A DNA stretch of 64,000 bases, taken from contig JAFUGE010000008.1 of NCBI GenBank assembly GCA_017469545.1, positions 127,268 to 191,267 of the forward strand. The letters are read 5' to 3'. The notes under the pieces are model-generated. The model was not told where the DNA came from. It ran no database searches and saw only the letters and a list, made by a program, of their open reading frames with translations. Shown one piece after another: positions 12,265-64,000 of the stretch. Positions within the stretch are counted from its first letter, which is position 1; every line of letters starts with the position of its first letter. Source of the DNA: Clostridia bacterium. GTDB taxonomy: Bacteria; Bacillota; Clostridia; TANB77; UBA1234. The translations under genes and the position numbers were made by a program.

Positions 12265-13647
12265 ATGATTAATACGGTTCCGAAAGAGGAAATCGAGAAG
12301 CAATATGAATATATGAAAAAAATCAAAGACTTAGGGCTTGAGAAAACGTATTTTATTTATACAATGGGCTGTAAATTGAACGAAAATGATTCTGAGAAAA
12401 TAGCAGGAATGCTTACTGAAATGGGATTTACAGAAGCCTCTACAGTAAGTGATGCCGATATTGTAGTGTATAATACTTGTAGCATTCGTGAAAATGCGGA
12501 AGAAAAAGTATTTGGAAAATTGGGCGAGCTAAAAAAACAAAAAGAGGAAAGAGGCACGATTATTTGTTTTGCAGGATGCATGAGTCAAGAGCCACACGTG
12601 ATTGAGAAAATAAAGAAGAGCTATTCGCAAGTGGATATCTTATTTGGTACGCACAATATTTACAAATTCCCTGAAATGTTGTATAAAAAAATCACAGAAG
12701 AGGGAAAGTGGTTTGACGTTTGGAATATTGATGGAGAAATCTGGGAAGGCGTTCCAATTAAGCGTGCAGACAAAAAGAGTGCGTCGGTTACGATTATGAA
12801 TGGCTGTAATAACTTTTGCACGTATTGTATAGTACCTTATACGAGGGGAAGAGAAAGAAGTAGAAAGCCGGAAGACATTATCGAGGAAGTGAAAGGTCTG
12901 GCAGAGGAAGGTTATCGCGAAGTAATGCTACTGGGGCAGAATGTAAATTCTTACAAGGGTAGAGAAGATTACAATTTTGCCAATTTACTAAGTGATATTG
13001 ATCAAATTCCCGGCATAGATATTATTAGGTTTATGTCTCCACATCCAAAAGATTTTAAAGACGATGTGATTGACGTAATTGCTTCTTCGAAACATATTTG
13101 CAAGGTGATTCATTTGCCACTACAATCGGGAAGCAGCAAGGTTTTAAAGAGTATGAATAGAGGATACACGAAAGAGCAGTATTTGGAATTGGTAGATAAA
13201 ATTAGAGCAAAAGTTCCAGATGTGGCTTTTACAACAGATATTATCGTTGGCTTCCCGGGCGAGACAGAAGAGGACTTTGAAGACACGCTAGATGTCGTAA
13301 GAAGAGTTGACTTTGAACAAGTATTTATGTTTATATACTCTGTCAGAAAAGGCACGAGAGCGGAGAAGATGGAGGGCCATATCCCAGAAGAAATCAAATC
13401 GGAAAGATTTAGCAGACTAAAAGAATTGGCCGATGGAATGGTTGACGAGGGAAATAAAAAATACATAGGAACGATTCAGAAAATTTTAGTAGAGGGCGAG
13501 AGCAAGACAAACAGTGAAGTGTTAACAGGCCGCACCACGACGAATAAAATTGTGAATTTCGTGGGAGATAAGAGTTTGATTGGAAAAGAAATTGAAGTTA
13601 GGATTGTGTCACAGCATGTTTGGTATTTAAAAGGTGAAACAATTTAA
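12265..13647 (+). CDS. miaB: tRNA-i6A37 methylthiotransferase MiaB
   Basis: N-terminal MTTase domain (YFIYTMGCKLNENDSE, VVYNTCSIRENAE), radical SAM motif CNNFCTYC, C-terminal TRAM domain. Confidence 0.85.
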   Translation: MINTVPKEEIEKQYEYMKKIKDLGLEKTYFIYTMGCKLNENDSEKIAGMLTEMGFTEASTVSDADIVVYNTCSIRENAEEKVFGKLGELKKQKEERGTIICFAGCMSQEPHVIEKIKKSYSQVDILFGTHNIYKFPEMLYKKITEEGKWFDVWNIDGEIWEGVPIKRADKKSASVTIMNGCNNFCTYCIVPYTRGRERSRKPEDIIEEVKGLAEEGYREVMLLGQNVNSYKGREDYNFANLLSDIDQIPGIDIIRFMSPHPKDFKDDVIDVIASSKHICKVIHLPLQSGSSKVLKSMNRGYTKEQYLELVDKIRAKVPDVAFTTDIIVGFPGETEEDFEDTLDVVRRVDFEQVFMFIYSVRKGTRAEKMEGHIPEEIKSERFSRLKELADGMVDEGNKKYIGTIQKILVEGESKTNSEVLTGRTTTNKIVNFVGDKSLIGKEIEVRIVSQHVWYLKGETI

Positions 13648-13664
13648 AATATCAGCACATGCTC

Positions 13665-13690
13665 TGTAGGGGCAGCGTAGCACGCTGCCC
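13665..13690. repeat. REP-like palindromic element (TGTAGGGGCAGCGTAGCACGCTGCCC)
   Basis: Family member in the miaB-downstream intergenic region. Confidence 0.85.
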
Positions 13691-13715
13691 AGGGATATAA
13701 TAAAGGAGGAAAAAT

Positions 13716-15359
13716 ATGGTTAATGTTACATATAAGGGAAATTCTTATGAGGTTGAAGACCATACAAAAGTAAAAGACTTTTTAGCAAGTCAAAATGTGG
13801 ATTTGAATGGGGTGCTTGCTTGTAAAGTATTTAATGAAGTCAAGTCTTTGGATTTTGAATTATTTAAGGATTGCAATATTGAATTAATTGACTATACTTC
13901 GTCAGATGGCAATCGTATTTATATTCGAGGCATTACGTTTATTTTGTTAATGGCTTTTGAAGAGTTGTATCCGGAAATCAAAATGACGGTTAATTATTCA
14001 TTGGGGCATTCTATCTATTGCGAGCCACATGATCGTGAAAAGTTGACACAGGAAATGATTGATAAGCTTGTTGCTAGAATGAAAGAAATCGTAGAAGCGG
14101 ATATGCCTTTTGAGAAAAAGATTTTTAATATTGAAGAAGCAAAAGCACTTTACAAAGAAAAAAATCGTGAAGACAGAGTAGGACTTCTTGATAGCAGAAT
14201 GAAGTCGTATGTTTCTATGTACTATTGTGGTGATTATTGGAATTACTTTTATGGAGTGATGCCGATTTCTACAAAGTATTTAAAGTATTTTGATGTGAAA
14301 CTTTATGAAAATGGCTTGCTATTAGTATATCCAAGACGTTCGAATCCAACACAAGTAGAAGAGATTATCAATACGAAAAAGTTGTATGCTACTTTTGACG
14401 AATACGATAAGTTACATAGAATTTTAGGCGTGGAAAATGTTGCAGGACTAAATAAATGTATTCAAGAGGGAAAAATAGGGGAATTAATAAGAGTCTCGGA
14501 AGCTTTGCACGAGAAGAAAATTGCGCAGATTGCAGATAACATTGCGGCAGATAGAAGAAAGAAAATTATTTTAATTGCAGGGCCATCTTCTTCGGGAAAG
14601 ACTACGTTTGCGCAAAGACTAGGCGTGCAATTAAAGACGAATGGCATAAAAGGCGTAACGTTATCGATGGATAATTATTTTGTCAATAGAGAAGATAATC
14701 CTAGAGACGAAGATGGTAATTATGATTTTGAATGTTTAGAGGCAATTGATGTAAAATTATTTAACGAACAGCTTACTGCTCTTTTGAATGGAGAAGAAGT
14801 AGAGCTTCCTACATTTGATTTTACGACTGGTACGAGAAAATTCTTGGGAAACAAAGCAAAATTGCATGACGACGAAGTGCTTGTCATTGAAGGAATTCAC
14901 GGACTAAATGAAAAACTAACAGCATCTATTCCAAGACAATTCAAATATAAAATTTATATTAGTGCTTTGACGGCATTAAACATTGACGACTATAACAGAA
15001 TTTCGACGACGGACTCAAGATTGCTTAGAAGAATTCTTAGAGATAGCAAATATCGTTCCCATCCTGCAGACGCCACGATTAGAATGTGGCCATCTGTCAG
15101 AAGAGGCGAAGAAAAATATATTTTCCCATATCAAGAAGAAGCGGATGTTATTTTTAACTCTTCTCTTGTTTATGAAATTTCAGCATTAAAGTCATACGTA
15201 GAACCACTTTTAGTATCGGTGCCACACGATGCGCCAGAGTTTTCAGAGGCAAAGAGACTTTACGAATTTTTGGGATACTTCTTGCCAATTGAAACGGACG
15301 ATATTCCACTTAACTCGCTACTACGTGAGTTTGTGGGTGGTGGATGTTTTTATAGATAA
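13716..15359 (+). CDS. multidomain nucleoside kinase: TGS / ThrRS-like N-terminal domains fused to a uridine kinase (PRK family) P-loop domain
   Basis: 547 aa; the N-terminus resembles the threonyl-tRNA synthetase TGS/second additional domain; C-terminal half carries AGPSSSGKTTFAQRL (Walker A) and a uridine-kinase-like fold. Confidence 0.65.
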   Translation: MVNVTYKGNSYEVEDHTKVKDFLASQNVDLNGVLACKVFNEVKSLDFELFKDCNIELIDYTSSDGNRIYIRGITFILLMAFEELYPEIKMTVNYSLGHSIYCEPHDREKLTQEMIDKLVARMKEIVEADMPFEKKIFNIEEAKALYKEKNREDRVGLLDSRMKSYVSMYYCGDYWNYFYGVMPISTKYLKYFDVKLYENGLLLVYPRRSNPTQVEEIINTKKLYATFDEYDKLHRILGVENVAGLNKCIQEGKIGELIRVSEALHEKKIAQIADNIAADRRKKIILIAGPSSSGKTTFAQRLGVQLKTNGIKGVTLSMDNYFVNREDNPRDEDGNYDFECLEAIDVKLFNEQLTALLNGEEVELPTFDFTTGTRKFLGNKAKLHDDEVLVIEGIHGLNEKLTASIPRQFKYKIYISALTALNIDDYNRISTTDSRLLRRILRDSKYRSHPADATIRMWPSVRRGEEKYIFPYQEEADVIFNSSLVYEISALKSYVEPLLVSVPHDAPEFSEAKRLYEFLGYFLPIETDDIPLNSLLREFVGGGCFYR

Positions 15360-15366
15360 ATGTATG

Positions 15367-15392
15367 GTAGGGGCAGCGTATCACGCTGCCCG
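15367..15392. repeat. REP-like palindromic element (GTAGGGGCAGCGTATCACGCTGCCCG)
   Basis: Family member between the kinase gene and the RNHCP gene. Confidence 0.85.
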
Positions 15393-15408
15393 CACAAAGA
15401 GGGATTAT

Positions 15409-15717
15409 ATGAGAAATTTTACAGAAATAGACGAGGAATTTGTATGTGAAAATTGTGGCAAGAATGTACCCAAATTAATTTACTCTTGTCGAGACCATTG
15501 TCCGTATTGTTTGTATGCAAAGCACGTAGATATTTTTCCTGGAGATAGAATGGAAGAATGCCACGGAATGCTAGAGCCAATTGGGATAGAGAATAATCCT
15601 AAAAAAGGTTATGTGATTGTCTACAAGTGCAAGAAATGTGGAAAGATTAGAAAAAATATTGCGGCGAAAGACGATAATATGGCACTTATCATAAAGTTAA
15701 GTGCAAATCCAATTTAA
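15409..15717 (+). CDS. RNHCP domain zinc-ribbon protein
   Basis: MRNFTEIDEEFVCENCGKNVPKLIYSCRDHCPYCLYAKHVD...CKKCGK: a CxxC...CxxC pair plus the RNHCP signature; ATG at 15409 with AAGAGGG RBS is preferred to the upstream track start inside the REP. Confidence 0.6.
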   Translation: MRNFTEIDEEFVCENCGKNVPKLIYSCRDHCPYCLYAKHVDIFPGDRMEECHGMLEPIGIENNPKKGYVIVYKCKKCGKIRKNIAAKDDNMALIIKLSANPI

Positions 15718-15772
15718 CATGAATAAATTGTTGCTCCTCCTAATACTTATGGTATAAAGGAGGAGTATTGTT

Positions 15773-16609
15773 ATGAATAAAAAGTGGATTTGGATTATTG
15801 TGATTCTTTTAATTGCCGTCATTATTTTTGCAAAGTGTTTTTCGAACAATAAAAATGAGGAGGAATTTAAGCCTATTGATAAAAATATTGGTGACGAATT
15901 TACAGAGCTTTCATATCCTAACAAAATGTTTATTGTGAATTATGAAATAGCGGACGTTACTGGCGATGGAGAGAAAGATATGATACTACTGATTGGCGAA
16001 GCTGAGAGCGGAGAAGGGCTAAGTGATGCTACCATAAGCAATATGGATGTGGTTGTCTATGATACGTCAAATAGTCAGTTTATTAAGGCGGATGCAAGCA
16101 AATTATCTGGCAAGAACAATAGAATGACTGTAGCGGATTTTACTGGTGATCAGATATTGGATATTATGATAACAAGTGATAATGGCAAGAATAGTGCAAG
16201 AATTTATACATATGAAAATGGAAAGTTAAAAGAAATTTGGAAAGAGAGAAATAATAAAGGATTAGTTTTTATCGGTGAATTTAAGGATGGTTTTAAAGTA
16301 GAAATCAATAATAAGAAATTGAATTTGAGTAAGGTATTAGATTTGCCAAGTGAGAATTATGTGGAAGCTTCTTTTTATAATAATTCGGGAAAGTTATTGA
16401 GTGATAAAAAATCAATTAGTACTTCTGGATTTACTTCCATTGAGGTAATAAAACTGAATGATAGAAATGGACTACGAACATTGCAAAGAATTTATGGAAT
16501 GAATGATAATGATATCTTAGACGAAATTGGGACCGTGTGGAAATATAGTGAAGGCAAATGGCAAATGGTTGAAGTAAAAGGACTAAAACTCGGGAATTTG
16601 TTATATTAG
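15773..16609 (+). CDS. membrane-anchored/secreted protein with FG-GAP/VCBS-like repeats
   Basis: N-terminal TM/signal segment WIWIIVILLIAVIIF; repeated DxTGDGxxD(I/M) motifs (VTGDGEKDMILL, FTGDQILDIMI) typical of FG-GAP/VCBS beta-propeller repeats. Confidence 0.5.
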   Translation: MNKKWIWIIVILLIAVIIFAKCFSNNKNEEEFKPIDKNIGDEFTELSYPNKMFIVNYEIADVTGDGEKDMILLIGEAESGEGLSDATISNMDVVVYDTSNSQFIKADASKLSGKNNRMTVADFTGDQILDIMITSDNGKNSARIYTYENGKLKEIWKERNNKGLVFIGEFKDGFKVEINNKKLNLSKVLDLPSENYVEASFYNNSGKLLSDKKSISTSGFTSIEVIKLNDRNGLRTLQRIYGMNDNDILDEIGTVWKYSEGKWQMVEVKGLKLGNLLY

Positions 16610-16673
16610 ATTCACACTTTTTTATCTTCTTGCATAATATAAATTAGAATTCAGAAAGGAAGGAGAAGATAAA

Positions 16674-16799
16674 ATGGGTGACGAATTAAGAAGTTGCAAT
16701 AACAATGATGTAGGAGGAGTTACAGACAATCGTAACTGCTGCTGCAGTAGTAGATTTCTTTTCTTTATACTAATATTTATCTTATTATTTATAGACTAG
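16674..16799 (+). CDS. tiny Cys-rich membrane peptide (41 aa), paralog of the pair at 34316-34597
   Basis: Not in the ORF track (<60 aa). ATG at 16674 with AAGGAGAAG RBS encodes MGDELRSCNNNDVGGVTDNRNCCCSSRFLFFILIFILLFID; a terminator hairpin follows at 16822. Confidence 0.5.
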   Translation: MGDELRSCNNNDVGGVTDNRNCCCSSRFLFFILIFILLFID

Positions 16800-16821
16800 G
16801 AATACTTAATTTGATGAAAAT

Positions 16822-16859
16822 GCCAGAAAATATAACGAAATATTTTCTGGCATTTTTTG
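16822..16859 (+). terminator. rho-independent terminator
   Basis: GCCAGAAAATA...TATTTTCTGGC hairpin followed by ATTTTTTG. Confidence 0.7.
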
Positions 16860-16944
16860 TGCGCGAAAAAATACTTTATGTGCTATGAAAGATAAAATGT
16901 GGAAAAGAAGTTATAAAATTTGCTCATATGAAAGAGGTGAGCAT

Positions 16945-17574
16945 ATGGTAGATAAAGTTTGTGAGACGTTATTGGATAAGATTAGAAAGAGTGATACGAC
17001 GATTGACGACGAGAAGGCAGAGATTATCTACTATGGCTTGCAGAATATGATTGGGGAATTGCCGAAGTTAATTATAGTGTTTGGACTTGCTGCATTACTT
17101 GGGATATTTAAATTAGTGGTGTTGGGTACAATAGTTTTAATGATATATAGAGGCTTTGCTGGTGGAGTACATTTGAAAACCCATATTTCTTGTTTGTTGA
17201 CTAGCACTTTTTTAATGATTGGAAGTACATATTTGGCAAAAGAGGTAATATATGAAAATGTGCTTTTAGTATATACAATCTTGCTAGCATTTAACCTTAT
17301 AATAGCTTTATTATATGCGCCAGCAGATACAGAAAATAAGCCAATTATGAAAGAGTCTCAGAGAAAAAAGCAAAAAATTGAAAGCATTTTAATGGTATTT
17401 TTAATTTATTTTTTATCAATAGTTGTTATAAAAGAGAGAGCAATTACAAATTTGTTTATGTATATGATAACAATAGAATCGCTAATGATTACGCCACTTG
17501 CTTATAAAATTTTTGACAATAAAACGGGAGACGAGAGGAGAAAAGCAATACTAGAAGGAAGAGAGGGTATGTAA
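16945..17574 (+). CDS. agrB: accessory gene regulator B (AgrD-processing membrane peptidase)
   Basis: Polytopic membrane protein with the AgrB signature RGFAGGVHLKTHISC (compare consensus R.FAGG.HA.T...C); ATG at 16945 preceded by AGAGGTGA. Confidence 0.75.
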   Translation: MVDKVCETLLDKIRKSDTTIDDEKAEIIYYGLQNMIGELPKLIIVFGLAALLGIFKLVVLGTIVLMIYRGFAGGVHLKTHISCLLTSTFLMIGSTYLAKEVIYENVLLVYTILLAFNLIIALLYAPADTENKPIMKESQRKKQKIESILMVFLIYFLSIVVIKERAITNLFMYMITIESLMITPLAYKIFDNKTGDERRKAILEGREGM

Positions 17575-17623
17575 AAAGGGCCGGCCTTTTCACATAGATA
17601 AAAAATACGAAGGAGGAATTAAA

Positions 17624-17734
17624 ATGTTAAAATTATTAGCTAAACTAGCTGAGAAATATGCTAAGGCAAGCACAAGCACTTGCCCAGGTTGGTATTGGCA
17701 TGAAGCTAAAATGCCTACTTCTTTATTAAAATAA
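17624..17734 (+). CDS. agrD: candidate AgrD autoinducing-peptide precursor (36 aa)
   Basis: Not in the ORF track. ATG 8 nt after GAAGGAGGAA, immediately downstream of agrB, encodes MLKLLAKLAEKYAKASTSTCPGWYWHEAKMPTSLLK: an amphipathic leader, a Ser/Thr-Cys core (STCPGWY; the Cys could form a thiolactone) and a charged tail; a bidirectional terminator follows. Confidence 0.55.
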   Translation: MLKLLAKLAEKYAKASTSTCPGWYWHEAKMPTSLLK

Positions 17735-17742
17735 TGATTTAA

Positions 17743-17779
17743 TAAAAGGCATGCACTTAGGCACGCCTTTTATTTTTTT
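17743..17779. terminator. bidirectional terminator between agrD and the convergent kinase gene
   Basis: AAAAGGCATGC...GCACGCCTTTT hairpin flanked by an A tract and a T tract. Confidence 0.65.
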
Positions 17780-17782
17780 GTT

Positions 17783-19138
17783 TTAAGATGTTGTGAGAGT
17801 TTCCCTTTGCTTTTTATCTTTCTCTGGCTTTTCTCTAATTTGAATGTATAATTCTTGTCTAAAGTATTTATCGTCTTTGTCAGTGTTAAGAATGACGTTG
17901 TCATTTCTTTCTACGATTTTTCTTACTTCCCATAATCCAATTCCAGAATTTCTATTTTTCGTAGAATAATCTTTTTCATATATTTTCTCGGTATCAATAT
18001 CTTTTAGCAAGTAGGTATTTTCAATCGAAAATAATTGTATTTTTGTCTTGTTACTTTGACGTACCACAATATTAATTTCTTTTTCTTCCGTTTCTTCGGC
18101 AGCTTCAATTGCATTATCTAACAACACTCCAAGGATTTTACAAAAGTCATAGATTGGCATATCTAAGTTTTGATAATTAAATATGGACTCGATGTTAAAG
18201 CTAATATTTTTCTCGTATGCTTCTTGGCATTTGGTAGAAATTAGTGCAAGTACAGATGGTTCATTAATCTTTTCGGCAGTGATGTTTTCTAACGTATTGA
18301 CTTTATCTACATCTTTCTTCAAGCCTAAATAATATTTTTCTAATCCGCCAATATCATTCATTCTAATATATCCACCGATGGCATGAACAACATTGTTATA
18401 ATCATGCTTGAATGTTCTAATGTTATCATTTAAGTTTTGTAATTTTGCATTTTCTGCATTTGAATTTTTCAAATCTATTTCTGTTTTCTCTAATTTTATT
18501 TGCTTATGAGTATTGTAAATAGCTAAAATAACTAAAACGATATTCGATATCACATTGTAGATTAACAGCCACATTGGATAGTTATATTTGTTTAGCGTAT
18601 AAAAGATAATGTTTGGTCCAACCATAAGAAAAACTAGAGCGATATTGATTCCTATGAAACGATTGTTGAATTGCAAATTGATATTTCTCTTCTTTTTGAA
18701 TACGTAAAGTAGAGATGCAATAATCATGTAACAAATAATTATCATAATAAGCACAGGTATTGAAGCTATAACATTTTCATTGCTATTTGATAATTTTAAT
18801 ATTTGAAAAGCTACAGTTCCACTGATCATTTCGACAGGTACAGCTACTATCATTAAAAATATGCTGTAAAGTATATCTTTTATAAAGGAATTCTTCTTGA
18901 AGGAAAATAGAATCAAGGCACCTAACAAAACAAAAATTATTGGATTAATAGCATATAAAGAATCTGGTGCTAGAAATCTAAATAGTGTTGTGTATATTCC
19001 TAATATTATTGAATAAATTAGTTTGGATTTTAAATTGAGTTCTAAATTAAATGCTATATTTAAAATTATGGACTGAACAAATATTTGTAAAACTGCGAAG
19101 ATAAATGTTATTCCTCCATTAATAAGTAATTCCTTCAT
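17783..19138 (-). CDS. AgrC/HPK10-family sensor histidine kinase (GHKL ATPase, polytopic N-terminal sensor)
   Basis: 451 aa; six or more N-terminal TM helices; C-terminal half has HDYNNVVHAIGGY (H-box of LytTR-associated kinases) and GIGLWEVRKIVE (G-box). Confidence 0.75.
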   Translation of the reverse strand: MKELLINGGITFIFAVLQIFVQSIILNIAFNLELNLKSKLIYSIILGIYTTLFRFLAPDSLYAINPIIFVLLGALILFSFKKNSFIKDILYSIFLMIVAVPVEMISGTVAFQILKLSNSNENVIASIPVLIMIIICYMIIASLLYVFKKKRNINLQFNNRFIGINIALVFLMVGPNIIFYTLNKYNYPMWLLIYNVISNIVLVILAIYNTHKQIKLEKTEIDLKNSNAENAKLQNLNDNIRTFKHDYNNVVHAIGGYIRMNDIGGLEKYYLGLKKDVDKVNTLENITAEKINEPSVLALISTKCQEAYEKNISFNIESIFNYQNLDMPIYDFCKILGVLLDNAIEAAEETEEKEINIVVRQSNKTKIQLFSIENTYLLKDIDTEKIYEKDYSTKNRNSGIGLWEVRKIVERNDNVILNTDKDDKYFRQELYIQIREKPEKDKKQRETLTTS

Positions 19139-19829
19139 TAAAAATCAACTTCCTTTCATCAGTGATATAACGATCACTGTAATTTATTGCATTTTCTTCT
19201 ATATATAAAGTGTGTCTTTTGTTATCTATATTGGTTATCTTTTGACTATTTACAATAAAGGATTTGCTGCATCTCACAAAATATCCTGGGAGACAACTTC
19301 TAATTTCTTCTACTGTACCATAAATTTGAAAGTCTGATGTAGTAGTATGCACAGTGGCTTTAGCGCCTTCTTTTTCAATATATGAAATATCACTTACTCT
19401 GAATAAACGTTTACTACTTCCAAGTTTTACAAACATGTTTTTGTTATCATAGATATCGTCGCATAATCTAAGTACGGTTTCTTCTAGTTTAGAGTAGGTA
19501 ATAGGTTTCATTAAAAAATCAAATGTTTTCACTTTATAGGCTAGCATCGAATATTCGAAGTGAGCAGTTAAGAATACGATGTATACATATTTGTCAACGG
19601 TTCTAATTTGCCTTGCTAAATCAATTCCTGTCACTTGATTTGACAAATCAATGTCTAAGAATATGACATCCACTTTATTACTGCTTAAATAATCAATAAG
19701 CTTGGTAGAGTTCGTTGCAGCAAAAGAGACTTCAGCATCAATATCATGATTCACAAAAATGGATTTTAATGTTGAAGTTATTTTATTTAGTGTAGTTTTA
19801 TTATCGTCACATAATACAAATCGCAACAT
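19119..19829 (-). CDS. LytTR-family response regulator (AgrA-like)
   Basis: 236 aa; receiver domain (VIFLDIDL aspartate pocket) plus C-terminal LytTR DNA-binding domain (RVSDISYIEKEGAKATVHT); overlaps the kinase gene by 20 nt. Confidence 0.75.
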   Translation of the reverse strand: MLRFVLCDDNKTTLNKITSTLKSIFVNHDIDAEVSFAATNSTKLIDYLSSNKVDVIFLDIDLSNQVTGIDLARQIRTVDKYVYIVFLTAHFEYSMLAYKVKTFDFLMKPITYSKLEETVLRLCDDIYDNKNMFVKLGSSKRLFRVSDISYIEKEGAKATVHTTTSDFQIYGTVEEIRSCLPGYFVRCSKSFIVNSQKITNIDNKRHTLYIEENAINYSDRYITDERKLIFNEGITY

Positions 19830-20003
19830 AGTAATTTCAGCCTATTTCATATATACACAAAACCGAGTTTATCATATAACGCATTACGAATTATGTCAAG
19901 AATAAAAAACGTAAAAATGTCGATAAATATAAAAAATAATTTTATATAATTATAACAAATCGTTGAAATTAAGCTATTTTTAAGCAATGACAAGAATGGA
20001 TAC

Positions 20004-22872: not shown

Positions 22873-22920
22873 ATTGTGATATAATTGATAAAAGGCGATA
22901 TGAGGAAGGAGTTTAGCAAA

Positions 22921-23949
22921 ATGCAAGAGATTGTAGAACCACTTTTGCAGTGGTATCAGATAAATAGAAGAGCACTTCCGTGGAGAGAAGACACGAATCC
23001 ATATCATGTATGGATTTCTGAAATTATGTTGCAGCAAACAAGAATTGAGGCAGTGAAGGAATATTATGTGCGTTTTATGAAAGAACTTCCCAACGTAGAA
23101 AGTTTAGCGAATGTTTCAGAAGAAAAATTACTCAAATTATGGGAAGGATTAGGCTATTATAGCCGTGCGCGCAATCTGAAAAAAGCGGCAGAAATCATTA
23201 TGGAAAAGTACAATGGAAAGATGCCTACTTGTTATGCAGAGCTAATACAATTACCTGGAATAGGGGAATACACGGCAGGGGCGATTGCCTCTATTTGTTA
23301 TCAAGAAAAAGTAACGGCAGTGGATGGAAATGTACTTCGCGTTATCTCAAGAGTAATAGGAAGTAAGAAAGATGTTTTACTTCCAGAAACAAAGAAAGAA
23401 ATCGAAGGGAAACTAAAAAAAGTAATGCCAAAGCAATCCGGAAATTTCAATGAAGCGTTGATGGAGTTAGGGGAAATAGTATGTCTGCCAAATGGGGCAC
23501 CAGACTGCGAAAATTGCCCGCTTGAAAATTGCTGTGTTGCATTCCAGAAAAATTTAACAGACGAGATTCCAGTTAGAGTAAAAAAAGTCAAAAGAAAGCA
23601 GGAAGAAAAAACAGTTTTCATTTTGGTTACACACGATCATAAAATTGCACTGGAAAAAAGAGAAGGAAAAGGATTACTATCAGGTATGTATCAATTTCCA
23701 AACGTAGAAGGGTTTTGTCAGGAAGGGGCAATCAAAGAGTTGCTTTTGAAGTGGAGTTTAGAGGCAAAAGAAGTTCGTTTTTTGAAAGAGGCAAAACATG
23801 TTTTTACGCATATTGACTGGTTTATGAAAGGATATTTAGTAAGAGTAGAAAAAGAAAATAAAGATTTTTTGTGGATTTCTCCGGAAGAGCTTGAAAAAGA
23901 ATATCCACTTCCGACAGCATTTCAAAAATTTAAGAACTTTGTAAAATAA
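22921..23949 (+). CDS. mutY: A/G-specific adenine DNA glycosylase
   Basis: HhH-GPD N-terminal domain (LQQTRIEAVKEYY, LPGIGEYTAGAI), 4Fe-4S cysteines CLPNGAPDCENCPLENCC, and a C-terminal NUDIX-like domain; ATG at 22921 has AGGAAGGAG RBS. Confidence 0.85.
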   Translation: MQEIVEPLLQWYQINRRALPWREDTNPYHVWISEIMLQQTRIEAVKEYYVRFMKELPNVESLANVSEEKLLKLWEGLGYYSRARNLKKAAEIIMEKYNGKMPTCYAELIQLPGIGEYTAGAIASICYQEKVTAVDGNVLRVISRVIGSKKDVLLPETKKEIEGKLKKVMPKQSGNFNEALMELGEIVCLPNGAPDCENCPLENCCVAFQKNLTDEIPVRVKKVKRKQEEKTVFILVTHDHKIALEKREGKGLLSGMYQFPNVEGFCQEGAIKELLLKWSLEAKEVRFLKEAKHVFTHIDWFMKGYLVRVEKENKDFLWISPEELEKEYPLPTAFQKFKNFVK

Positions 23950-60502: not shown

Positions 60503-61275
60503 TGGATAAAGAAAGATTTAAAAGAATAATTGAAATCTGTGCAGAACCAAAGGATGTTATAGATGAAGTTGCCAAAAATCATGATAATAATCTATGGTGG
60601 CCAAAGAATGTTGAGGATTATAGAAAAAGATTACTAATAGCCGGACTTTCGACAAGAATTTCATATAATATGATTGATACATATAAATCAGTAATATCTA
60701 AATTGGATAAATATAGTTATAGTGAATTATCAAATATGGAAAAGGAAAAAATTATTACCATAATAAAGCCATTAGGACTGTCTAACGCAAGGTATAATTA
60801 TATTAAATCAATGATAAATTTTGTCGATGAGTACCAAGATGAATTATTAAATTTTTCAAACGAAGAATTAATTACTCTTATTGCTCAAAAAGTAAAAGGA
60901 GCCTCATATAAAGTTGCTCAATGTTGTACGTTATATATGAAAGGATATTACTGCGGGATAATGCCAGTTGATAGTGGAATGAAAGATATAGAATTGCCTT
61001 GTATGGGATTTAACTATTATAAAAATGATAAGGGGCATGAAATTTTAAGAAAAGAACTTGAAGATTTAGTTGAATCTGTTGATTTTAATGAAATGATTAA
61101 GAAATCAAAATTCGATAAGTTTAATATAGAAAATAAACATCATCCTACATGGTTAATTCATTTGATATTGATATATTATAAACGATTATATTGTAATAAA
61201 CACAAAACAAAAGATTGCCCTCTTCACAGAGAAAAACTTACTAAAGATATGTGCTATAAAGAAGTAATAAAGTAA
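60503..61275 (+). CDS. HhH-GPD superfamily (endonuclease III/AlkA-like) base-excision glycosylase-like protein
   Basis: LIAQKVKGASYKVAQCCTLYMKGYYCGIMPVDSGM aligns to the helix-hairpin-helix plus Gly/Pro-rich loop plus catalytic Asp (L..LPGVG.KTA......F.....VDTH) of Nth/AlkA; ATG at 60503 overlaps the upstream stop. Confidence 0.5.
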
Positions 61276-61294: not shown

Positions 61295-61810
61295 ATGATT
61301 ATTTTAGAAGGTATTGATGGCAGCGGAAAAACGACTTTAGCTTTGGAATTAAAAAAGCATGGTTTTAAAATGCATCATTTTGGATATGATGATTCAAGCA
61401 AAAGTATAGAGCAAAAATATTTAGATGTATTAAAACAAAATACAGACAGAATGGTAATGGATAGATGTTTTATTAGTGAATTAGTATATGGTCCTGTTTT
61501 ACGTGGAAACTGCAGATTAGACAAAACTCAAACTATCAATTTGTTGGAACAATATAAGAAAGTAGGTACAAGTATTATATACTTAAAGGCAGATAAGGAT
61601 GATATACTTTCTAGAAGAACAGAAGATAAAAAAGACTCAGAAATGTTAAGTAAATTTTATGAGGAATTAAATGATAAATATGATACCGCTATGTGGATTG
61701 CATCAAAATTTCTTGATGTTGAAGAAATAAATACTTCTAATTTATCAAAAAAAGAAACTATAAAACGTTTGGAGAGATATGTTGATGTGGGATTTGATTT
61801 TTGTAGGTAA
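61295..61810 (+). CDS. thymidylate kinase-like dNMP kinase
   Basis: MIILEGIDGSGKTT is the Tmk P-loop signature; 171 aa; DRC (DRCFISELVY) in the position of the Tmk DR(Y/H) motif. Confidence 0.6.
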   Translation: MIILEGIDGSGKTTLALELKKHGFKMHHFGYDDSSKSIEQKYLDVLKQNTDRMVMDRCFISELVYGPVLRGNCRLDKTQTINLLEQYKKVGTSIIYLKADKDDILSRRTEDKKDSEMLSKFYEELNDKYDTAMWIASKFLDVEEINTSNLSKKETIKRLERYVDVGFDFCR

Positions 61811-62552
61811 CATTTCAGAAGATAATATTATTATCAATGCAAGCAATAAAAGCAATAAGTGTATAGGCGGTAGTGCTGTGTATTCTTCGTTCGCTAGTAG
61901 AATTTCAAATGAATTTTTAAAAATAGGAATTATAGGAAAATGCAATGGTAAGTATAAAAATATTATTGAACAGAATAAAATAGACTTTTTGGGAAAAATA
62001 GTAGTTGATAACACTATATTTTATATAGACGAGATAAAGAATACATGTGAAGGGGAAAATTATAATAATGTTTGTTATGAAAATAGCAAAAAGGTTAAAA
62101 CAAGACATCTGCATATATCTTTCAGGAAAGGAATAAGTGTTGAACAGATTATAGAAAATGAATTAATTGAGTACGATTCACTATCAGTTGATGTTATGAT
62201 ATATAGCGTTAATTTTTTTATTCCTGTATTGAAAAAATATTCCAACAAAATTGATATCTTATTTTGTAATATGGATGAGTATATAATGATTAAAGAATAC
62301 ATAGATAGCAAAACAATAGTAGTTATAACTAATAATTCAAAACCTGTTACAGCATTAGCTTTTAATAAAATATATATGGCAGAAGTAGATTATATCTATA
62401 ATGTTCTTTCGACTACAGGTGCAGGAGATTCTTTTATTGGTGGCTTTTTAGGAAGATATTTGCAAGAAAAGAATTTGGAAGAATCCATAAAAAGCGGAAT
62501 AATGATATCGCAAAAATCGATATTGAATATTCGGACCTTTAATGAGCAATGA
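61785..62552 (+). CDS. PfkB-family carbohydrate/nucleoside kinase (ribokinase-like)
   Basis: C-terminal TTGAGDSFIGGFLG is the PfkB anion-hole/catalytic GAGD motif; ATG at 61785 is 8 nt after GGAGAG and overlaps the previous gene by 26 nt. Confidence 0.6.
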   Translation: MWDLIFVGNISEDNIIINASNKSNKCIGGSAVYSSFASRISNEFLKIGIIGKCNGKYKNIIEQNKIDFLGKIVVDNTIFYIDEIKNTCEGENYNNVCYENSKKVKTRHLHISFRKGISVEQIIENELIEYDSLSVDVMIYSVNFFIPVLKKYSNKIDILFCNMDEYIMIKEYIDSKTIVVITNNSKPVTALAFNKIYMAEVDYIYNVLSTTGAGDSFIGGFLGRYLQEKNLEESIKSGIMISQKSILNIRTFNEQ

Positions 62553-63381
62553 AGGAGTAAAAACGATTTCTTCATTAAAAGTATATGAAATGCCAAAAAA
62601 GGTTATTGTAATAGGAAATTCATGTGCAGGTAAAACAACTTTTGTGAATATGTATAGAAGTATCTTTGATATTTATGATGAAATAGATGATATTAAACCA
62701 CTAACAGAAGTGTTTATGCTAGATGACTTGATAAGAAAAAATGATATGAATTTAGAAAATATAGATGTTAAATATTGTAAAGATATACTTAAAGAATATG
62801 TATTAGAAAAAAATAATATTAATTTTTATACTAAACTATCTGAAAAAGGACAGGGACACGTTATATTAAGACCCGTTTTATGGGAAAAGATTGTTGAATA
62901 TTCTTTGAATGCATGTAATTCAGATAAATTTATTATTCAGCTTGCAAGAGGAAAAGATGAATCCTATGATGATATGGAAAAAACTAATGCGTATGAAAAA
63001 GCTTTTCAAATAATGGATGACAAGAAGAAATTAGGCAAAGATACAATTATAGTGAATTTAAAAGCTGATTTAAAAAGGAGAATTGATAGAAACGAACAAA
63101 GGAAACGAAATGGAGGTCATTATGTTGATTTTAATACTATGAATACTGTATATGCTCATGATATTTTTCAATATGATACGGATAAAGGAAGAGATTTTTA
63201 TGATATGAATGGTAGAAAACTTTTGGTTTACAATATTGAAAATAATAATATTTTGGACGAAAATGATTTGAAAGTTTTTATGAGTAATAATATAATCAAT
63301 ATGATTAAATATTATAACAAATTTAAGGAGGATGTATCAGATGGATATGAAAAAATTACAAAAAGAAGTTTATCAAAATAA
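62542..63381 (+). CDS. P-loop NTPase, putative (deoxy)nucleoside/nucleotide kinase (AAA_18/AAA_33-like)
   Basis: VIVIGNSCAGKTTFV Walker A near the N-terminus; start uncertain (ATG 62542 overlapping the PfkB stop, or in-frame ATG 62590). Confidence 0.5.
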   Translation: MSNEGVKTISSLKVYEMPKKVIVIGNSCAGKTTFVNMYRSIFDIYDEIDDIKPLTEVFMLDDLIRKNDMNLENIDVKYCKDILKEYVLEKNNINFYTKLSEKGQGHVILRPVLWEKIVEYSLNACNSDKFIIQLARGKDESYDDMEKTNAYEKAFQIMDDKKKLGKDTIIVNLKADLKRRIDRNEQRKRNGGHYVDFNTMNTVYAHDIFQYDTDKGRDFYDMNGRKLLVYNIENNNILDENDLKVFMSNNIINMIKYYNKFKEDVSDGYEKITKRSLSK

Positions 63382-63640
63382 ATTAAATAAAGGTTTTAAC
63401 GTTACAGATGTTAATAAAGAATTCTGCTTTTTGTATGGTGAAGTAGCAGAAGCATATGATGCATATAGAAAAGGAAAAGATGACTTAGGTGAAGAATTGG
63501 CAGATGTTGCAATATATTTATTGGGCCTTTCAGAAATTTTAGGTAAAGATTTGGAAGATGAAATATTAGCTAAATTTGAGAAAAATAAAAGTAGAGTATA
63601 TAAGAACATTGATGGCAGAAATGTTAGAATCGGTGATTAG
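63341..63640 (+). CDS. MazG-like nucleoside triphosphate pyrophosphohydrolase (all-alpha NTP-PPase)
   Basis: EFCFLYGEVAEAYDAY ... EELADVAIYLLGLSEILG is the EExxE...EExAD metal-binding signature of MazG/dCTPase-type NTP-PPases; ATG 63341 is 9 nt after AAGGAGG; overlaps the previous gene. Confidence 0.65.
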   Translation: MDMKKLQKEVYQNKLNKGFNVTDVNKEFCFLYGEVAEAYDAYRKGKDDLGEELADVAIYLLGLSEILGKDLEDEILAKFEKNKSRVYKNIDGRNVRIGD

Positions 63641-63641
63641 G

Positions 63642-64000
63642 ATGAAAATAAAAATGATTGAATATGAGGAAAATTACTTAAATGATGTTAGAGATTTGCT
63701 AACGGAATTAGAAGAATATATTGTCTCTATTGATCAGGACAAACTAGATAGAATTCATCCAGAGTATCATGAAAAAATGGCACTACTTGATTTAAAAAAG
63801 GTAAAAGAGAATCATGGAAAATGCTATCTTGCAATTAGAGACAATGATAAAGTTCTTGGCCTAATTATGGGAATCATTCCGGAATATGAAGAATCTGATT
63901 ATTTAGATTACAAATGTCCAAAAAGAGGAATCATTACAGAACTGGTTATTACAGAAAAAGCAAGGAGTATTGGTATCGGACATATGTTAATGGAAAAGAT
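63642..64000 (+). CDS. GNAT family N-acetyltransferase (5' part; truncated by the window end)
   Basis: MKIKMIEYEENYLNDVRDLL...GIITELVITEKARSIGIGHMLMEK is the GNAT motif A region; begins 2 nt after the MazG stop. Confidence 0.55.
   Translation, partial: MKIKMIEYEENYLNDVRDLLTELEEYIVSIDQDKLDRIHPEYHEKMALLDLKKVKENHGKCYLAIRDNDKVLGLIMGIIPEYEESDYLDYKCPKRGIITELVITEKARSIGIGHMLMEK

Follow-up and report, generated by a model that had tools for sequence, protein, structure and literature searches.

An isolated HhH-GPD-fold protein family within a conserved operon of nucleotide enzymes in uncultured bacteria

The locus and gene D

The DNA analyzed here (the window) is a stretch of 64,000 nucleotides from a Clostridia bacterium (GCA_017469545.1, contig JAFUGE010000008.1), and our subject is a gene near its downstream end, gene D, whose product is a member of the helix-hairpin-helix (HhH)-GPD superfamily by its fold and catalytic Asp and lies outside the curated Pfam family model. 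D sits in a run of tightly packed, co-directional genes that are lettered A to H in operon order and followed by a GNAT gene (Table 1; end coordinates of A to H include the stop codon). Comparison of loci revealed D to be the constant core of a conserved seven-to-eight-gene operon that occurs across phyla.

An earlier note on this DNA had described D as a DNA-glycosylase-like protein embedded in a nucleotide kinase/phosphatase operon, flanked by a racemase-fold gene and a Tmk-like kinase, and the families of the neighboring genes bear out both this general setting and the two immediate neighbors. It had also held D to be distinct from the MutY of the genome, and a true MutY indeed lies at 22885-23949 (HhH-GPD, E 1.4e-24, plus NUDIX_4). 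The start given there, 60503, is one base out of frame, and translation from it yields 26 stops. The listed open reading frame (ORF) spans 60496-61275 (+), with the likely start of D at an ATG at 60502, which has AGGAG five to six bases upstream; a GTG at 60496 is an alternative start codon. The segment that the note had quoted, VKGASYKVAQCCTLYMKGYYCGIMPVDSG, comprises D residues 131-159 (nucleotides 60892-60978).

Table 1. Operon genes and associated features in the window
Feature	Position	Strand	Description
secA-operon gap	57100-57830		Terminator-like hairpin 57100-57134; near-perfect ~45 bp palindrome ~57160-57205; second hairpin ~57258-57300
Integrase remnant	57567..57758	+	Tyrosine recombinase C-terminus; Pfam Phage_integrase E 5.5e-7, profile positions 131-170 of 172; upstream edge of low-GC island
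Candidate promoter	57791..57819	+	TTGAAA-17-TACAAT with TG, directly upstream of A; from a consensus scan, such sites being no commoner than in shuffles
A	57839..58336	+	NT5C-like (HAD) 5'-deoxynucleotidase; Pfam NT5C E 1.1e-6
B	58346..59755	+	MiaB/RimO-like radical S-adenosylmethionine (SAM) enzyme, CX5CX2C; Pfam Radical_SAM, TIGR00089; shortened here by frameshift
Displaced B C-terminus	59676..59855	+	Beta-barrel (TRAM-like) in another frame; translation matches C-termini of full-length orthologues
C	59852..60499	+	Maleate cis-trans isomerase-like, Asp/Glu racemase superfamily; profile against PDB 4fq7 E 3.2e-19
D	60502..61275	+	HhH-GPD-fold protein, 257 aa, fourth operon gene; founding member of proposed new family
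D core motif region	60892..60978	+	HhH hairpin, K137, C141/C142, Gly/Pro-rich loop, D157 (VKGASYKVAQCC...MPVDSG)
E	61295..61810	+	Tmk/dNK-like P-loop kinase; Pfam dNK and Thymidylate_kin
F	61785..62552	+	PfkB/ribokinase-family kinase; Pfam PfkB E 4.8e-11
G	62542..63381	+	P-loop kinase-like protein with Arg-rich LID, without family assignment
H	63341..63640	+	MazG-like nucleoside triphosphate pyrophosphohydrolase; Pfam MazG-like/MazG; PHROG pyrophosphatase E 3.5e-13
I	63612..64000	+	GNAT acetyltransferase, runs off the window; Acetyltransf_1 in identical contig L005

Fold, active site and family boundaries of D

An AlphaFold2 model of D, with 18 homologues as input, was all-helical, without strands and two-lobed about a central HhH (mean predicted local distance difference test score, pLDDT, 86.9; predicted template modeling score, pTM, 0.82). 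When this model was compared with the PDB by Foldseek, 106 matches had E <= 10, and all 50 of those listed were HhH-GPD glycosylases, namely EndoIII, MagIII, Ogg, MutY, ROS1, NTHL1, AlkA and MBD4; the top 30 had a probability of 1.00, with template modeling (TM) scores of up to 0.6-0.69 and a best E of 1.1e-3. At the sequence level, D alone matched the Pfam HhH-GPD family (PF00730) at E 0.0095 and 16.7 bits, below the gathering score of 26.2, while 18 of 18 diverse family members matched it at E <= 0.1 (best E, 4.5e-6). Further, a broad D-family profile ran in register with Clostridium Ogg (3f0z) through G-x-x-x-K-V-A-x-C ... P-V-D, at a marginal E of 0.028, and with endonuclease III over helices B-F. 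The HhH, Gly-rich loop and Asp that the earlier note had read as an HhH-GPD hallmark are thus upheld by the model and its structural matches, the family's Pfam matches and the in-register Ogg and EndoIII alignments. As a single protein, D had no significant match in Pfam, NCBIfam, PADLOC, PHROGs or the PDB sequences, and hhalign of D against single EndoIII or MutY sequences was in register and not significant.

Residue conservation, counted over 144 D-family sequences from genomes and metagenomes, revealed that R52, G92, R97, C141, P155, D157, G159, W217, H220, K227 and R228 are invariant. The N-terminal WWP motif is nearly so (W32 and W33 in 143, P34 in 142), as are L93 (142) and G133 (139). 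Of the two catalytic residues on which the earlier note had dwelt, then, the Asp is kept throughout and the Lys in part: K137 is present in 124 sequences and replaced by Asn or His in the remaining 20, in one high-GC subclade. Hence, a lyase-type lysine is common in the family and not universal. The invariant Asp, at its canonical position ~20 residues past the hairpin, argues for chemistry at the N-glycosidic bond, and we predict that D is a catalytically competent N-glycosyl-bond enzyme, with an Ogg1-like active-site motif on an endonuclease III-like scaffold.

The family also carries an unusual set of cysteines. C167, C231 and C239 are each present in 124-141 of the sequences, and C251 in 100, with alignment gaps in the other 44; some deep branches lack these cysteines. 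The C-terminal 'W..H...YYKR.YC' of D matches, in an alignment by eye, the 'WLILHGRYTC' of Escherichia coli EndoIII, which enters the Fe-S loop. The re-spaced cysteines of D therefore probably form a remodeled metal or Fe-S site. Charge and pI, tried as indicators of DNA binding, were uninformative, with pI ranging from 4.9 to 9.6 in the D family and at 6.1 in the catalytic domain of the window MutY.

The D family is small. A search of 5.8 billion proteins returned 394 relatives, all unnamed or 'hypothetical', of which the 120 best listed were 57-81% identical to D, and when 1.84 billion representatives at 50% identity were searched exhaustively with a profile, only 118 family members were recovered. 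Abundant as canonical glycosylases are, none was among those 118, and the family is therefore sharply isolated. A phage origin was also considered, and no D relatives were found in phage collections, either by tblastn against 50,697 phage records or in a scan of IMG/VR.

Comparison with known HhH enzymes places D close to several of them and inside none. The best overall structural matches are to the Nth/MagIII/MIG group, specifically D. radiodurans EndoIII-1, H. pylori MagIII, 1kea and 1orn (TM <=0.69, target-normalised), and D shares with this group, in register, the helix B 'LS(T/A)(R/Q)', 'IK..GL', the HhH hairpin, the Asp and a C-terminal 'W..H....(K)R.YC' that leads into the Cys loop; Lys120 of Nth aligns with K137. 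However, D has no significant sequence match to Nth (best EndoIII, E 0.4 for the D-family profile against the PDB; none in NCBIfam), is ~45 residues longer, including the N-terminal extension with the WWP motif, and spaces its cysteines as C231-X7-C239-X11-C251 plus the distant C167, rather than as the [4Fe-4S] ligands C-X6-C-X2-C-X5-C of Nth. Its context, among nucleotide enzymes and with kinase fusions, likewise differs from that of the group.

The best sequence-level match is instead to Ogg1, through the active-site motif G-x-x-x-K-V-A-(D/Q)-C-x-x-L-(Y/F)...P-V-D; KVAQC...PVD of D is in register with 4ejy (MBOgg1, E 0.12) as well as with 3f0z, both at marginal E-values, and Ogg structures are among the top fold matches. 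Yet, the N-terminal domain of Ogg1 is missing from D (no Pfam OGG_N match), Ogg1 is without the EndoIII-like Cys loop that D has, and the Ogg1-type Lys is replaced in 14% of the D family. MutY differs in its C-terminal NUDIX-like domain for recognition of 8-oxoguanine, which the window MutY has and D lacks. For Qng1 (DUF2419), we found no Pfam (Q_salvage) or other sequence relationship to D; Qng1 has beta-hairpin insertions in and around the HhH, whereas the hairpin of D is uninterrupted in its all-helical model, and Qng1, unlike D, is not known to be associated with a kinase or a radical SAM enzyme. Membership in the phage AADT/aGPT-Pplase group was rejected, with no Pfam match, an hhalign probability of 0.4% against phage M6 gp51 and an E of 0.76 to Pplase1 in BFVD. 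By their defining tests, D thus falls outside Nth, MutY, Ogg1, Qng1 and AADT, which makes it the representative of a new and isolated HhH-GPD family.

Operon conservation, mobility and decay

The loci compared comprise 66 from GTDB species genomes and 80 more from JGI metagenomes, and partners were counted in 66 loci where D has flanks of 4.5 kb or more in either direction. In these, D was accompanied by C in 52, E in 51, B and F in 50 each, G in 44, H in 35 and A in 29. Carriers include RF39-like 'Bacilli/Tenericutes' metagenome-assembled genomes, Erysipelotrichaceae, Clostridia, Dojkabacteria and other Patescibacteria, gut Alphaproteobacteria, Gastranaerophilales, Chloroflexi, Bacteroidetes and high-GC soil contigs. 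With the exception of one Ktedonobacter genome, which has D only, the carrier records are metagenome-assembled genomes, one single-cell genome or uncultured isolates. Most bacteria with the operon are uncultured, and they are mainly associated with the gut. The genes are not always in the same order (Alphaproteobacteria, for instance, have F-G-B-D-E-C), and D and E form the tightest pair, E directly following D in most arrangements, even where the rest is reshuffled. Further, fusion of D to E occurs in 10 of these 66 loci and, among full-length representatives at 50% identity, in many of those that score best. Other fusions join E to a HAD enzyme, F to G, or F to G and H; F and G, separate ORFs with an 11-nucleotide overlap in the window, form one ~530-aa protein in most Bacilli-type loci.

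This pattern bears on one account of D, in which it is an ordinary housekeeping repair glycosylase, substituting for Nth or Ogg, and its context is meaningless. Such a role would suit an HhH-GPD fold with a catalytic Asp and a protein that can stand alone, but we consider it highly improbable, given that the same neighbors are kept across Bacilli, Clostridia, Patescibacteria, Alphaproteobacteria, Gastranaerophilales (related to Cyanobacteria), Chloroflexi and Bacteroidetes despite rearrangements, that D is physically fused to a kinase, and that a family of 118 representatives among 1.84 billion is tiny beside those of housekeeping glycosylases. No AP (apurinic/apyrimidinic) endonuclease, ligase, helicase or nuclease gene was conserved beside the operon in the compared loci. 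No counterpart of the operon is described in Pfam, NCBIfam, PADLOC or PHROGs, and full-text searches of the literature found no description of this gene combination. A known defense system was also considered and rejected, as D, B, C, F and H had no PADLOC matches.

Among the partners, B follows the three-domain plan of methylthiotransferases: its radical SAM core (CX5CX2C or CX4CX2C) lies between a flavodoxin-like domain at the N-terminus and a beta-barrel at the C-terminus. An AlphaFold model of an orthologue (pLDDT 91) had MiaB, MtaB and RimO as its top Foldseek matches (E about 1e-17), followed by MgmA, AprD4 and OxsB, and only two of the three auxiliary-cluster cysteines are kept. In the window, B carries a one-nucleotide insertion near 59713 (59700-59720) relative to its orthologues, by which the last ~47 residues are displaced. 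This frameshift is common to three independent metagenome assemblies and may be a real inactivating mutation; a recoding site is less likely. In C, both catalytic cysteines (C80 and C177), N12 and P116-Y117 are invariant. The E profile is nearest in the PDB to SPbeta YorR (2axp, E 6.6e-13) and to thymidylate kinases, and the best full-length NCBIfam match of F is ribose-1-phosphate kinase, far below the cut-off. The GNAT gene, I, is only loosely tied to the operon and lies near it in few other loci. Contig L005 continues the window past 64000, and its positions 13100-17700 hold the GNAT gene, an HD_4 gene (RelA/SpoT-type HD), a second MazG-like gene and genes for a 184-aa protein and a 527-aa Y-family polymerase; the polymerase and the other nucleotide and translesion genes downstream are possibly on the same island as the operon.

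Several versions of the operon add or replace enzymes. That of Alphaproteobacteria includes a HAM1/ITPase and a 112-aa protein. In a Chloroflexi locus (L062, 12058-12801), G is replaced by a ThyA-like protein (Pfam E 5.8e-16) in which the catalytic Cys motif (PCH) reads VPSTIMAQFY, so that the nucleophile is missing. High-GC environmental loci (L136 9602-10558, L143 1642-2655 and L153 4872-5756, and also L135 and L147) encode, between F and E, nucleoside 2-deoxyribosyltransferase-like domains (PF05014, E 1e-16 to 1e-19) in proteins of ~300-340 aa; these versions are without G, H and A, and such proteins occur in tandem. In a single metagenomic version (L105, 1862-2668), C and a D-E fusion are separated by the gene of a QueC-like PP-loop protein (PF06508, E 8e-10).

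The operon stands out in its genome by composition, with a guanine-plus-cytosine (GC) content of 0.27, against 0.365 in the flanks of the window, and wherever host GC is higher, that of the operon is below its flanks (mean difference, -0.03 over 45 loci). Together with this drop, the integrase remnant and the hairpins and palindrome upstream (Table 1) suggest that the operon came in on an integrative element. One copy elsewhere adjoins KAP NTPase, QatB and TatD genes, a Qat-type defense neighborhood, and another adjoins phage nozzle and head-fiber genes (L077, 12681-17521; L076, 12685-17521), consistent with residence in mobile or defense islands. The operon seems to be exchanged between phyla. 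Rfam found no credible riboswitch or leader that would name a ligand in the 800-bp gap upstream of it. At 16000-20000 in the window, the composition profile reveals another low-GC stretch (0.28-0.31), where GC skew is locally reversed.

The operon has also been lost repeatedly while D was kept, with D alone in 11 of the 66 loci and D with a remnant of C in 2. Each of these loci is nearest to a relative with the full operon, and in some of them D occupies an unchanged place in the chromosome, such as that behind secA or pheT. Loci L001-L004, L015, L026 and L031 are examples of such loss, after which a 98-aa piece of C sometimes persists. The ratio of nonsynonymous to synonymous substitution rates (dN/dS) for D is about 0.12-0.2 where the operon is lost, indicating purifying selection, compared with 0.04-0.1 in full operons. 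Dispensability in close relatives argues against an essential role for the operon, such as that of an alternative thymidylate synthase or of ribonucleotide reductase-independent deoxyribonucleotide synthesis.

Candidate functions of D and its operon

The operon points to an undescribed nucleotide pathway, not to routine DNA repair. For D itself, we tentatively propose, at somewhat less than an even chance, a Qng1-style N-glycosidase or transglycosylase that acts on a free, non-canonical (deoxy)nucleoside 5'-monophosphate. A role at the level of DNA, by base excision or base exchange, is almost as probable, and a small remainder of probability falls to other roles. The earlier note had offered both kinds of target, a base in DNA and a mononucleotide, and the sequence evidence is divided between them. 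Qng1 has the HhH glycosylase fold with Lys and Asp retained, is specific for queuosine-5'-monophosphate in salvage, and has a pocket called Ogg1-like (PMC9881137). It thus provides a functional precedent, in that an HhH enzyme that keeps Lys and Asp can be mononucleotide-specific. Of the other operon enzymes, those with a recognizable family, the radical SAM enzyme and the isomerase excepted, act on free nucleotides or nucleosides (NT5C, PfkB, MazG, HAM1 and the deoxyribosyltransferase-like variants). The D-E fusions, the chained fusions of nucleotide enzymes and the operon content favor a nucleotide-level substrate, and two further features count for it: E is a small kinase without the helical domain of DNA-base kinases, and the operon has no conserved DNA-processing partner beside it. 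Purifying selection on D where it stands alone fits a sanitizing hydrolase that can work by itself.

Under this proposal, Asp157 of D would cleave the bond between base and sugar, or transfer the sugar phosphate to another base, and the product or co-substrate would pass to the adjacent or fused Tmk-like kinase E. The MazG-like (or HAM1) and NT5C/HAD enzymes would supply or deplete the pools of mono-, di- and triphosphates, the PfkB kinase F and the second P-loop kinase G would phosphorylate a nucleoside or sugar, and the MiaB-like radical SAM enzyme B and the two-Cys isomerase C would remodel the base. Here, we infer the substrate class, the direction of the pathway and a small molecule, rather than DNA, as the target of D. 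The clues to the substrate disagree. Specifically, 2'-deoxynucleotides would suit the partners (NT5C, Tmk/dNK, deoxyribosyltransferase-like and ThyA-like), while the Ogg1/Qng1-like pocket motif of D hints at a purine or deazapurine.

Several observations weigh against a mononucleotide substrate. First, D appears to keep positions of DNA contact: R52 and G92-L93 fall, in weak alignments, on Gln41 and Leu81 of EndoIII, which, from EndoIII-DNA structures, we take to be the DNA 'plug' and 'wedge', the HhH hairpin is unbroken, and K227/R228 lie beside a Cys loop resembling the iron-sulfur cluster loop (FCL). Second, an insertion that blocks the DNA cleft, as in Qng1, was not demonstrated in D. Third, the deoxyribosyltransferase-like enzyme of some variants makes a second nucleotide-level glycosidase seem partly redundant. 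Fourth, all characterized relatives of B with the three-domain architecture act, to our knowledge, on macromolecules (tRNA or protein S12). Finally, the operon is similar in its cast to the phage clusters for thymidine hypermodification, which act on DNA and bring together a transferase of the HhH fold with a P-loop kinase, a nucleotidase and a radical SAM enzyme (PMC8989533). Common to both are an HhH enzyme beside or fused to a P-loop kinase, a 5'-deoxynucleotidase and a radical SAM enzyme of ~480-500 aa, to which a ThyA-like protein and an acetyltransferase are sometimes added.

The invariant EndoIII/MutY-like contact positions and the FCL-like loop would instead suit a DNA glycosylase that guards the genome, by removing a misincorporated non-canonical base that the operon makes or handles, and that is kept as protection after the operon is lost. 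This would resemble the self-resistance glycosylases of genotoxin clusters, or the logic of MutT, MutM and MutY. The repeated, independent losses in which D was retained under purifying selection speak for such a guard, as do the Ogg1-like K-V-A-x-C...P-V-D motif with its lyase-type Lys in most of the family, and the presence of MazG/HAM1 and NT5C, which are classical pool-sanitizing enzymes. However, it is difficult to see why a repair glycosylase should be joined to a Tmk-like kinase, the neighborhood has no conserved AP endonuclease or other repair gene, 20 of 144 sequences have Asn or His in place of Lys137, and the invariant C141 is not required for simple base excision. On balance, we place a genome-guarding role second and consider it rather unlikely.

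The parallel with the phage clusters raises another possibility, that D is a base-exchange transglycosylase on DNA or RNA, an analogue of TGT/DpdA with an HhH-GPD fold that would insert a modified base or nucleotide made by the operon, and that the MiaB-like B finishes the modification on the polymer. Beyond the shared gene set, this is in line with the TRAM-like barrel of the MiaB-like partner, with the QueC-like gene of one variant and with the one locus beside Qat genes; given retaining chemistry of the MutY type, transglycosylation is also plausible in chemical terms (discussed in PMC9881137). We nevertheless regard it as improbable. D has no similarity to AADT/aGPT-Pplase by hhalign or Pfam, has no relatives among the 50,697 phage genomes or in IMG/VR, is without a linked restriction or nuclease partner, and survives without the rest of the operon. 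Moreover, we know of no HhH-GPD enzyme with base-exchange activity. The likeness to the phage clusters is itself incomplete, as E is without the helical domain of the 5-hydroxymethyldeoxyuridine DNA kinases (HMUDK), the main operon version is without a hydroxymethylase, and the D family is cellular; B had no homology by hhalign to phage M6 gp53.

In a related and likewise improbable scenario, the operon would encode a cellular route to a non-canonical deoxynucleotide, built by means of the MiaB-like radical SAM enzyme and the Cys-dependent isomerase, with D as the first HhH transglycosylase, exchanging the base onto a deoxynucleotide or into DNA. If so, an undescribed DNA base would be present in many uncultured gut Bacilli, Patescibacteria and gut Alphaproteobacteria.

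If D does act on a free mononucleotide, it would represent only the second lineage of HhH glycosylases, after Qng1, to have moved from DNA repair into nucleotide metabolism, and the operon would constitute a complete, uncharacterized pathway of seven to eight enzymes, common in uncultured RF39-like Bacilli, Dojkabacteria and other Patescibacteria, gut Alphaproteobacteria and Gastranaerophilales. With its radical SAM enzyme, B, the methylthiotransferase architecture would gain a new substrate. At the least, a new, clearly delimited family would be defined, whose diagnostic motifs (WWP, LSTR, GL...R, KVAQC, PVDSG and W..H...YYKR) can serve its annotation. Beyond this, knowledge of the substrate could lead to a new modified nucleotide, a new route of salvage or sanitation, or a new DNA modification.

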